Shown one piece after another: positions 1 through 8,762 of a stretch of DNA of 8,762 bases (position 1 is the stretch's first letter; each line of letters begins with the position of its first letter). A model generated the notes under the pieces. That model was not told the DNA's origin, ran no database searches, and was given only the letters and a program-made list of their open reading frames with translations. The DNA is from a virus (lineage: Duplodnaviria; Heunggongvirae; Uroviricota; Caudoviricetes), in the IMG/VR virus record IMGVR_UViG_2734482780_000010; one strand, 5' to 3'. A program made the translations under genes and the position numbers.

Positions 1-729
1 CTATTTGATCACGCAACACTTTACAGGCGGTACAGGACGATCGCCAGTGATAATGCTGAGGCGTAATTTAAACGGACGTTCTTTCAGACCTTCAAACGGA
101 ACGCATTTAAATTCAAATGCCACTGGCATAATGTCTTTGGTCTTCGCTTCGACAGACTCCATCAGGGAGCGTTTGCCGCTGAAGTCATTATCTTCAAAAT
201 CAGCGGTCTGGTTTGCTTCAATCGTGATTTTACGGACTGCCGCAGCCGCTTTTGTTGCTTGAATGGCGTCACCATTAGCATCAAAGCCCACAAGGTAGTC
301 GGCCCAGTCTTCGATCCATTCTGCCAGTGACTTCTGGGAGTTACGCTCGCCGTTAACAGACAACAGAGCAGAGAACGGTGCTGTCTTTTTCAGTTTGAGA
401 GTGGCAGTGTTATCTGCGTGACCTGGCTCATCAATAGTACCCAGGTTAAGCACACTGACGGCACGCATATTATCGGCATCGATAAAGCAGCGGGTGCCTT
501 CATCTGCAAGATCTTTAGAATAACGGGTAAAATCATCGATGCTGGCAGTGGAAAGTGCACCACGGAAACGGAAGCGATTTAAATTAAATTTTTCCAGATC
601 ATGAATGCGGAAATTCTCAGGCAATGCCACAGCATCGGCACCAATCTTACTGATAATTTCATTAACACCCTGAGCAGAAATAAGGGCATGGATTTGATTA
701 ATTGCGGTTGCGTCTAAGTTCTGAGACAT
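1..729 (-). CDS. DUF2303 family prophage protein (YfdQ-like)
   Basis: Complete 242-aa ORF on the minus strand; start ATG at 729, stop codon at 1-3 exactly at the window edge. Purine-rich SD-like sequence (GTGAGGAC) upstream of the ATG. Identification as YfdQ/DUF2303 is from recalled similarity to E. coli CPS-53 YfdQ, not from a search. Confidence 0.6.
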
Positions 730-952
730 AATAAGTCCTCACTATATAAAGATATTCAGTGATGAGATAAATAATCAGTTTATTACGAACGATATTAACG
801 ACCTGCTGCGCGGAGTTTTCCGTCAGGTTCACCGGCAAGAGTCAGTAATTGTCCCTGGTCTTCCTGCAGAATAGTCAGGCGACCACCGCGATTGACATAC
901 ATCGGCGTTTCGGTGGTGTCTTCTTCGGAAATTTTCCCGCGGTTACCGTTCA

Positions 953-1162
953 GTGAATGCAGCGGTGGAGCATCTTCGCGCACTGGAGAAAAAAGGCGTC
1001 ATCACGATAAAGCGTGGCGTGGCCCGGGGCATCACGCTTCATACCGCGGTGAAGGACGACGACAGCGAGGTGGCCGGGATTATCCGCGCACTGCTTGCTG
1101 GTGAGGAAAACGCCAGGCTGCGTGCAGCCCACTGGTTACATGAGAGGGGGCTGAAAGTATGA
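953..1162 (+). pseudogene. LexA-like gene fragment (recognition helix, wing and linker only); probable remnant
   Basis: Translation '...RGYRSVNAAVEHLRALEKKGVITIKRGVARGITL...' matches LexA residues about 36-70 ('[34 protein letters not shown]', 17 of 26 identical in the core). The frame only opens at 896 after a TGA; there is no ATG, the first possible start is GTG 953 with no Shine-Dalgarno. Helices 1-2 and the whole S24 peptidase domain are absent. The stop overlaps the rusA start as ATGA. Confidence 0.5.
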
Positions 1163-3952: not shown

Positions 3953-5050
3953 TTAGAACTGGTAAACCAGACCTACAGCAACGATGTCATCAGTGCTTAC
4001 ACCGAGTGCTTTAGTGAAGTCATTTTTGTCAAGCAGGTTGATTTTGTAATCAACGAAAGTAGACATATTTTTGTTGAAGTAATAGGTTGCACCTACATCA
4101 ACATATTTGACTAAGTCCTGATCGCCCCATACTCCAAGATCCTTACCTTTAGATTGCAGGTAAGCAACGGACGGACGCAGACCGAAATCGAACTGATATT
4201 GTGCAACAGCTTCGAAGTTTTGAGCTTTATTAGCAACGAAGTGATCAGCAAATACAGTCATATTCTGGGTTTCAGAATAGGTAGTGGCCAGGTAAATGTT
4301 GTTAGCGTCATATTTCAGACCTGCGGCCCAAACTTCTGCATTTTTACCGGAAGCAAATACTTCAGGAAGAACTTTCCCTGCATTAACTTGAGTGTCGGTA
4401 CGATCAGATTTCGCATAAGTTGCACCGATACCGAATCCTTCGTATTCATAGGTAGCAGAGAAACCGAAGCCATCACCGTTACCTTCGGTGTAGTTATCGA
4501 AATCGCTACGATCGTTTTTGCCTTGGTACTGAGCAGCAAAGTTCAGACCATCAACCAGACCAAAGAAGTCGTTGTTACGATAGGTTGCAACACCAGTGGT
4601 GCGACCAGTCATGAACACATCTGTTTGGGTCCAGGTATCGCCACCGAATTCTGGCAGAACGTCAGTCCACGCACCGATGTCGTATGCTACACCGTAGTTA
4701 CGGCCGTAATCGATTGAGCCGTAGTCACCGAATTTCAGGCCTGCAAATGCAAGACGGGTTTTGTCTTTGGAGGAACCTTGAGATTCAGCGCGGTTGCCTT
4801 TGAATTCATATTCCCACTGACCGAAACCAGTCAGCTGATCGTTGATTTGGGTTTCGCCTTTGAAGCCCAGACGAACATAAGTAGTATCACCATCATCTGC
4901 ATCGTTAGAGGAAAAGTAGTGCTTGGCATTAACTTTCCCGTACAGATCCAGCTTGTTACTGTCTTTATTATAAATTTCAGCTGCCTGAGCAGACATCGCC
5001 ATCAGTACTGATGCAGCTACAGCAGAAATTGCCACTGTTAATTTTTTCAT
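3953..5050 (-). CDS. nmpC: Outer membrane porin, NmpC/OmpD/Lc family (intact)
   Basis: 365-aa ORF with signal peptide '[23 protein letters not shown]|AEIYNK', general porin motifs and C-terminal 'VGLVYQF' ending in Phe. No IS interruption. Lower GC than the flanking phage genes, consistent with a moron. Confidence 0.9.
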
Positions 5051-7835: not shown

Positions 7836-8120
7836 TGGTAAAACCTTCCATGTGATACGAGGGCGCGTAGTTTGCATTATCGTTTTTATCGCTTCAATCT
7901 GGTCTGACCTCTTTGTGTTTTGTTGATGATTTATGTCAAATATTAGGAATGTTTTCAATTAATAGTATTGGTTGCGTAACAAAGTGCGGTCCTGCTGGCA
8001 TTCTGGAGGGAAATACAACCGACAGATGTATGTAAGGCCAACGTGCTCAAACCTTCATACAGAAAGATTTGAAGTAATATTTTAACCGCTAGATGAAGAG
8101 CAAGCGCATGGAGCGACAAA

Positions 8121-8327
8121 ATGAATAAAGAACAATCTGCTGATGATCCCTCCGTGGATCTGATTCGTGTAAAAAATATGCTTAATAGCACCATTTCTAT
8201 GAGTTACCCTGATGTTGTAATTGCATGTATAGAACATAAGGTGTCTCTGGAAGCATTCAGGGCAATTGAGGCAGCGTTGGTGAAGCACGATAATAATATG
8301 AAGGATTATTCCCTGGTGGTTGACTGA
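8121..8327 (+). CDS. ybcW: Prophage protein YbcW (small, uncharacterised)
   Basis: 68-aa ORF '[24 protein letters not shown]...' with SD GGAG 10 nt upstream; recognised as DLP12 YbcW and the lambda right-arm ORF. Confidence 0.75.
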
Positions 8328-8491
8328 TCACCATAACTGCTAATCATTCAAACTACTTAACCTGTGACAGAGCCAACACGCAGTCTGTCACTGTCAGGAA
8401 AGTGGTAAAACTGCAACTCAATTACTGCAATGCCCTCGTAATTAAGTGAATTTACAATATCGTCCTGTTCGGAGGGAAGAACGCGGGATGT

Positions 8492-8626
8492 TCATTCTTC
8501 ATCACTTTTAATTGATGTATATGCTCTCTTTTCTGACGTTAGCCTCCGACGGCAGGCTTCAATGACCCAGGCTGAGAAATTCTCGGACCCTTTTTGCTCA
8601 AGAGCGATGTTAATTTGTTCAATCAT
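8492..8626 (-). CDS. YlcI-like small protein (DUF3950), apparently N-terminally truncated
   Basis: 44-aa ORF below the track's length cutoff: 'MIEQINIALEQKGSENFSAWVIEACRRRLTSEKRAYTSIKSDEE'. The 'SAWV...C...L' core resembles the YlcI/YnfO family. No good SD; an in-frame stop lies 9 codons upstream, so the longer 64-aa form cannot be encoded here. Confidence 0.45.
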   Translation of the reverse strand: MIEQINIALEQKGSENFSAWVIEACRRRLTSEKRAYTSIKSDEE

Positions 8627-8639
8627 TTGGTTAGGAAAG

Positions 8640-8762
8640 GGTAATGAGGTGCTTTATGACTCTGCCGCCGTCATAAAATGGTATGCCGAAAGGGATGCTG
8701 AAATTGAGAACGAAAAGCTGCGCCGGGAAGTTGAAGAACTGCGGCAGGCCAGCGAGACAGAT
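8640..8762 (+). pseudogene. Terminase small subunit Nu1 homolog (NohD-like), 5'-truncated; 3' end beyond window
   Basis: Translation 'GNEVLYDSAAVIKWYAERDAEIENEKLRREVEELRQASETD' is near-identical to lambda Nu1 residues about 36-76. The frame is closed by TAA at 8610-8612 and the upstream sequence is unrelated to the Nu1 N-terminal wHTH. Possible restart at GTG 8649 with a fortuitous SD-like AGGAAAGG. Confidence 0.7.

Follow-up and report, generated by a model that had tools for sequence, protein, structure and literature searches.

A 540-bp deletion joining ylcI to an internal Nu1 segment: probable decay scar of a defective DLP12-family prophage in one E. coli lineage

Deletional decay of cryptic lambdoid prophages is textbook knowledge. 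Lambda prophages without cos are likewise familiar from the laboratory, where such deletions (e.g., the cos2 allele) serve in vitro packaging extracts. These prophages are lambdoid and lack cos, so they are unpackageable; however, they were engineered or selected and are otherwise functional, i.e., they still make terminase and heads. The element studied here, which we analysed within a window of 8,762 nucleotides (the whole stretch of DNA under study), is in contrast a natural one, in which Nu1 is truncated as well and the prophage is gutted.

With regard to location and late gene order, the element resembles DLP12 of E. coli K-12. Both lie at the argU site, between fimZ and the ompT/envY side, both show the late gene order from quuD to nohD, and both are defective with most morphogenesis genes lost. 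The window element differs in its early region, which is of another type (yfdQ/yfdP, kilA-N, DUF968), and in its set of deletions. K-12 DLP12, in turn, carries a full ylcI (64 aa, 195 bp), a 388-bp spacer with cosN, and a full nohD (181 aa, 546 bp). Since this arrangement is complete in K-12, the deletion reported below is not a property of DLP12-type elements. An earlier note on this DNA had advised a comparison with the K-12 DLP12 ylcI-nohD region to see whether the deletion is strain-specific; with K-12 intact, it is strain- or lineage-specific. The flanks of the deletion share about 99% identity with lambda, namely with positions 47717-48256 and with Nu1 starting at codon 36; lambda has all the DNA in between that the window element lacks. 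The allele appears to be undescribed so far, though it is not new in kind.

We are highly confident that the element belongs to the DLP12 family, as a defective lambdoid prophage located at tRNA-Arg(tct), the gene corresponding to argU, and, as part of the same reading, that it carries a lineage-specific deletion of 540 bp. The integration site was read from a sister contig (L003), in which the tRNA-Arg(tct) gene (19016-19092) adjoins fimZ, and in which 50 bp of the tRNA 3' end are repeated at 1327-1376, beyond ompT. The late region shows the order quuD - porin - essD - rrrD - rzpD - bor - ybcV - ybcW - ylcI - nohD, given the ORFs of the window, the gene calls of contigs L003-L010 and the annotations of 99.9%-identical relatives. 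The remnant, bounded by the attR repeat and by tRNA-Arg(tct) (argU), measures about 17.7 kb. It retains rusA, quuD, the porin gene, the lysis cassette, bor, ybcV and ybcW; cos and the large terminase are gone, and so are the immunity and replication genes, the portal, most of int and most of the head and tail genes.

A query of 663 bp (8100-8762) is split in two in thousands of E. coli genomes and in lambda-type phages, where the two blocks span 1,203 bp, i.e., 540 bp more than in the window. We mapped the breakpoints exactly against RM11911, FWSEC0010, K-12 MG1655 DLP12 and phage lambda, with concordant results. Compared to DLP12-type relatives, 540 bp are missing between 8639 and 8640. Compared to lambda, the number is 541 bp: the left block ends at lambda position 48256 and the right block picks up at 296 from window position 8640, i.e., the missing part comprises 48257-48502 plus 1-295. 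The features around the join are as follows.

8637..8640, no strand: deletion junction (D3 below), from pairwise alignment to RM11911 and exact breakpoint mapping.
8492..8626, minus strand: ylcI remnant, an ORF of 44 aa equal to YlcI residues 21-64, starting from an internal Met.
8640..8762, plus strand: internal Nu1/NohD segment from G36 (K35 when counting the shared AAG), running off the end of window and contig.
8607..8762, plus strand: chimeric ORF from ATG 8607, as called by gene finders in sister assemblies.

Around 8610-8660, the plus strand reads CAATCATTTGGTTAGGAAAG up to the join and GGTAATGAGGTGCTTTATGAC beyond it. In the parental sequences, GGAAAG is followed by CGGATG on the left, and GGCAAG by GGTAAT on the right. 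The two hexamers are alike at 5/6 positions, and AAG (8637-8639) is the 3-bp microhomology common to both. One of the joined AAG triplets lies in ylcI codons 16-17, the other is Nu1 codon 35. A synonymous Nu1 variant with GGAAAG for GGCAAG (codons 34-35; window 8634-8663) occurs in 17 complete genomes, on chromosomes as well as on phage-like plasmids. We considered a 6-bp parental microhomology via this variant and set it aside: the 99.9%-identical relatives carry GGCAAG, and the one carrier of the variant that we examined (APEC E14033) is of a different lambdoid type. The microhomology at the join is thus likelier to have been 3 bp than 6, as judged from these candidate parents.

The earlier note's description of this region agrees well with the mapping. 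It had claimed a deletion scar that removed cos and the Nu1 DNA-binding domain (the 540-541 bp are indeed present in intact relatives), an AAG microhomology at the join, a minus-strand ylcI-like ORF starting at 8626 (ATG opening 8492-8626) and truncated (44/64 aa left), and plus-strand Nu1 sequence from about residue 36 (it resumes with K35/G36 at 8637/8640). The lambda distances that it had given, i.e., about 200 bp to cos and then about 190 bp plus 36 codons, are about right. Its in-frame TAA at 8610 has to be corrected: TAA is found at 8611-8613 and out of the Nu1 frame, while 8610-8612 is TTA (Leu).

In intact relatives, cosN (GGGCGGCGACCT) is part of the piece that is lost here; from it, the left breakpoint is 246 bp away and the right one 294 bp (294-295), the latter distance being 190 bp plus 35 codons. 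The deletion removes YlcI codons 1-16 (MSTKNRTRRTTTRNIR), the region upstream of ylcI, cosN, and Nu1/NohD codons 1-34/35, and takes along the cos-flanking DNA and the Nu1 ribosome-binding region. In lambda, this DNA also harbours cosQ, the cosB elements R3, I1, R2 and R1, and the start region for Nu1 translation. Nu1 structures in the PDB comprise residues 1-68 (1J9I), 1-55 (7LW0) and 1-98 (6HN7). The winged-helix DNA-binding domain, solved as residues 1-68 (PDB 1J9I), is thus left incomplete by the deletion of residues 1-34/35: it is its N-terminal half that was removed.

No piece of the missing 540 bp was found anywhere else in the window, in which cosN has 0 matches at up to 2 mismatches and the Nu1 N-terminus is absent in every frame. 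Extending the cosN search to the whole remnant of about 17.7 kb (contig L003) yields a sole match with 2 mismatches, which lies inside the pin gene and is at chance level. This is what the earlier note had stated for the window, i.e., no cosN-like site and no Nu1 N-terminus in any frame, and it answers its call for a cosN search of the whole prophage. Of a functional lambda-type packaging module, cosN, large terminase and portal are absent and the Nu1 DNA-binding domain is incomplete.

The final 8,762 bp of contig JUBZ01000030.1 (GCA_000797575.1) and the window agree at 100% identity, and the window stops inside Nu1, 123 bp past the junction, where the source contig stops. The contig break at 8762 would be in keeping with a second, repeated copy of Nu1, as part of another lambdoid prophage of that genome. 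Exact look-up of the 44-aa ylcI product places the junction in 18 contigs, which stem from near-identical draft E. coli assemblies from NCBI. To these carrier contigs, the longest of which has 361 kb, the window aligns without gaps at 99.95% identity or more. In L003, the junction is found within a contig of 101 kb with about 10 kb of flank on either side. Because it is present in long contigs of independent assemblies, we regard the junction as real and not as an artefact.

To assess its spread, we used a 51-mer centred on the join, neither half of which is able to seed megablast (28-base word). Neither the 5,426 complete E. coli genomes nor the 50,697 phage records that we searched had a match across the join, and a junction 29-mer gave nothing in IMG/VR. 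The intact arrangement, with blocks exactly 540 bp apart, is present in 2,902/5,426 of the same complete genomes and in lambda-type phages. Given its occurrence in 18 draft contigs and in none of the three collections searched, the deletion is lineage-specific; going by these counts, it is apparently confined to a single rare, near-clonal E. coli lineage. The exact junction sequence provides a clean marker of that lineage (0/5,426 complete genomes, about 18 draft assemblies).

The closest complete relatives (e.g., O113:H21 FWSEC0010) are 99.9% identical to the window save for three gaps, and have 14.1 kb where the window has 8.7 kb. According to its annotation, the FWSEC0010-type relative harbours an apparently complete prophage at argU. 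With this relative as the reference for the window and for L003, we found the following deletions, given with the microhomology of the mapped junctions.

D1, window 30-32: from the C-terminal intD remnant to yfdQ, 2,434 bp missing, GTA.
D2, window 944-945: from yfdP to the gene of a LexA-family regulator, 4,825 bp missing, TA.
D3, window 8637-8640: from ylcI to Nu1, 540 bp missing, AAG.
D4, beyond the window, in L003: from Nu1 residue 169 to the middle of an S49 peptidase (gpC-like) gene, 3,751 bp missing, ATA.
D5, beyond the window, in L003: from the S49 peptidase gene, of which a fragment of 440 bp is left, to the gene of a tail fibre.

That is, at least five deletions shrank the prophage from an estimated size of roughly 45 kb to about 17.7 kb. 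The four exactly mapped junctions (D1-D4) all show a microhomology of 2-3 bp. With D2, the entire region for immunity and replication is gone (LexA-family repressor, cro, ymfL, replication HTH protein, perC), and D4 removes A, W and B, so that the large terminase (gpA) and the portal are absent downstream of Nu1 in L003. Window bases 1-32 match the inside of the relatives' intD. Since D1 left only the C-terminal part of int, the prophage cannot excise.

The 540-bp deletion explains why a helper phage cannot mobilise or package the element. The earlier note had concluded that the element would be unable to cut or package its DNA. This is true though redundant, because large terminase, portal, capsid genes and integrase are lost too, the other deletions having taken terminase, portal and head genes.

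We also searched for intermediates that would order the deletions. The 49-51-mers across D1, D2, D3 and D4, all designed such that each half is too short to seed, have no spanning match in complete E. coli genomes, and neither of the Nu1 products predicted for single deletions (178 aa, 157 aa) was found by exact look-up in a collection of 15 billion proteins. The ORF spanning D2 (795-983, minus strand, 62 aa) encodes a hypothetical protein known from 17-18 draft assemblies, which is the same contig count as for the ylcI remnant. The layout of the remnant, for which no intermediates are sampled, is that of a Swiss cheese: in L003, the islands between deletions are 408 bp of Nu1 (residues 35-169) at 9586-9993 and 440 bp of the S49 head-protease gene at 9149-9588. 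The 378-aa tail-fibre product of L003 7997-9133 is encoded on 29 contigs, compared to 18 for the other lineage-specific products; the surplus may come from intermediates or from prophages that are unrelated.

The deletion leaves two altered reading frames. On the minus strand, the 44-aa product MIEQINIALEQKGSENFSAWVIEACRRRLTSEKRAYTSIKSDEE is what intact relatives have as residues 21-64 of their 64-aa YlcI. Upstream of the junction, its frame continues antisense to Nu1 until a stop codon at 8660-8662, 11 codons ahead of the ATG. The remnant scores 71.6 bits (cut-off 25) against Pfam PF13132 (DUF3950) over residues 1-29, i.e., it retains the whole DUF3950 match, minus the 16 N-terminal codons (a basic tail) and the upstream region. 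The full 64-aa YlcI matches PHROG 949, function unknown.

On the plus strand, the sequence from 8637/8640 encodes KGNEVLYDSAAVIKWYAERDAEIENEKLRREVEELRQASETD, i.e., Nu1/NohD from K35/G36 onward. In sister contigs, Nu1 goes on to residue 169, followed by the second deletion (D4), and this remnant matches only profile positions 34-164 of Pfam PF07471. No stop codon interrupts the Nu1 frame between 8442 and the window end, and the starts in this frame are ATG 8562, ATG 8607 and GTG 8649. Due to this upstream opening, gene callers give a chimera from ATG 8607, which is preceded by a weak AAGAG Shine-Dalgarno-like sequence. It consists of 10 codons antisense to ylcI (MLICSIIWLG) fused in frame to Nu1 from K35 onward. 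The last 9 of its 154 residues (LPAWPLMSR) are foreign and stem from the next deletion. NCBI records list this very 154-aa sequence under the names 'DNA packaging protein' and 'terminase small subunit'. Given that it is a double fusion artefact without DNA-binding domain, a pseudogene flag is warranted for these records. The ylcI stub, which is without promoter, and the accidental chimeric Nu1 ORF are both best read as pseudogenes, where the loss of expression is assumed.

In all likelihood, the lineage-specific 540-bp deletion stems from the ordinary microhomology-mediated decay of a DLP12-family prophage and would be a scar without function. The AAG triplets of ylcI codons 16-17 and of Nu1 codon 35 would have been joined with loss of the intervening DNA by RecA-independent illegitimate recombination, i.e., by replication slippage or by microhomology-mediated end joining of a break. 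We infer the RecA-independent mechanism from the signature of the junction, for which slippage and break repair would look alike in sequence. Native RecBCD-dependent end joining in E. coli is known to yield joins with 1-3 nt of microhomology (bioRxiv 10.1101/605246). The ylcI stub and the chimeric Nu1 ORF would be mere by-products of the event. The cryptic prophage thereby gains one more documented lesion, which is of little biological weight.

Whether such a join needed a trigger can be asked with regard to cosN. Here, terminase would have cut the chromosomal cosN of the non-excisable prophage, RecBCD would have resected a few hundred bases, and the ends would have been joined at AAG. The terminase could have come from the prophage itself, before its gene A was lost, or from a co-resident or infecting lambdoid of the same specificity. 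We consider this unlikely. It is in line with the position of cosN near the middle of the deletion (246 bp vs 294 bp from the breakpoints), but in a 540-bp deletion covering cosN, a centring to within 24 bp would arise by chance with a probability of about 0.09, which is not significant. Double-strand breaks at the DLP12 cos are thought to occur during lambda growth and to stimulate recombination in the neighbourhood (PMC3945230), and native end joining in E. coli is RecBCD-dependent with the observed length of microhomology (bioRxiv 10.1101/605246); RecBCD, however, normally degrades kilobases, and terminase expression usually comes along with lysis such that survivors are unlikely. The end of the source contig inside Nu1 would fit a second Nu1 copy in the genome. 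On the other hand, the three other mapped deletions share the 2-3 bp signature without any cos site, therefore no special trigger is needed.

A broader version of the same idea is that D1-D5 arose together in one episode of abortive induction, i.e., by in situ cos cleavage along with other breaks, repaired by alternative end joining. This seems quite improbable to us. It draws on the observation that the sampled genomes apparently never carry just some of D1-D5. If it were true, the cos-centred loss of 540 bp would be the footprint of a terminase cutting the chromosome.

While decay leaves the chimeric ORF without function, one may also think of its domestication, i.e., of the 154-aa product acting as a dominant-negative decoy that poisons the terminases of incoming lambdoids. 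The chimera keeps central Nu1 and lacks the DNA-binding domain and the extreme C-terminus; its frame is open, with an ATG and the weak AAGAG sequence in front, and phage-parasitic islands are known to use proteins that target the small terminase subunit. The PDB entry with the N-terminal 98 residues of Nu1 (6HN7) we take to be a complex with such an island protein. Still, the product is a candidate predicted from sequence, its ORF start arises from ylcI read backwards and its C-terminus is a second accidental fusion. Furthermore, there is no signal of selection or spread since the allele is limited to about 18 near-identical draft genomes. We thus hold domestication to be very doubtful.

An assembly or contig-end artefact is hardly credible. 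It is suggested by the junction's distance of only 123 bp from the end of source contig JUBZ01000030.1 and by the multi-copy nature of Nu1-like sequence (median of 2 places per E. coli genome); however, the junction is located deep in independent contigs, e.g., the 101-kb L003 and the longest carrier of 361 kb, and an overlap of 3 bp is unable to produce a graph mis-join. That the arrangement is native to a subtype of DLP12-like phages with cos elsewhere and a shorter Nu1, which the earlier note had named as the case that would overturn its reading, can be practically dismissed, given that no phage record or IMG/VR contig searched carries the junction, that the remnant between attR and argU is without cosN, that large terminase, portal and head genes are absent, and that the 99.9%-identical relatives show the canonical arrangement.

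Some further observations concern the genes around the scar. The window encodes an uninterrupted porin of 365 aa (3953-5050, minus strand; NmpC/OmpC-like, Pfam Porin_1) between quuD and the lysis cassette; the porin copy of K-12 DLP12 (nmpC) is presumably disrupted by IS5. Just upstream of the chimeric start and antisense to ylcI, a terminator-like hairpin with a T run (CTGAGAAATTCTCGG ACCCTTTTTG) is found at 8572-8595 on the plus strand. It is a mere consensus match, with 1 found compared to 0.6 expected.

For YlcI, we tried an assignment as an Arc-type ribbon-helix-helix protein, which we dropped: it has no PDB sequence match, no RHH family in Pfam even at E<=10, and no BLASTP alignment to P22 Arc. 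At 8583, the window has T where the relatives have C (plus strand), which changes YlcI Gly35 to Glu (GSGNF to GSENF). The one contig found to encode a full-length 64-aa YlcI with Glu35 bears the label of a Marinagarivorans MAG, and this label is probably due to contamination or mislabelling.
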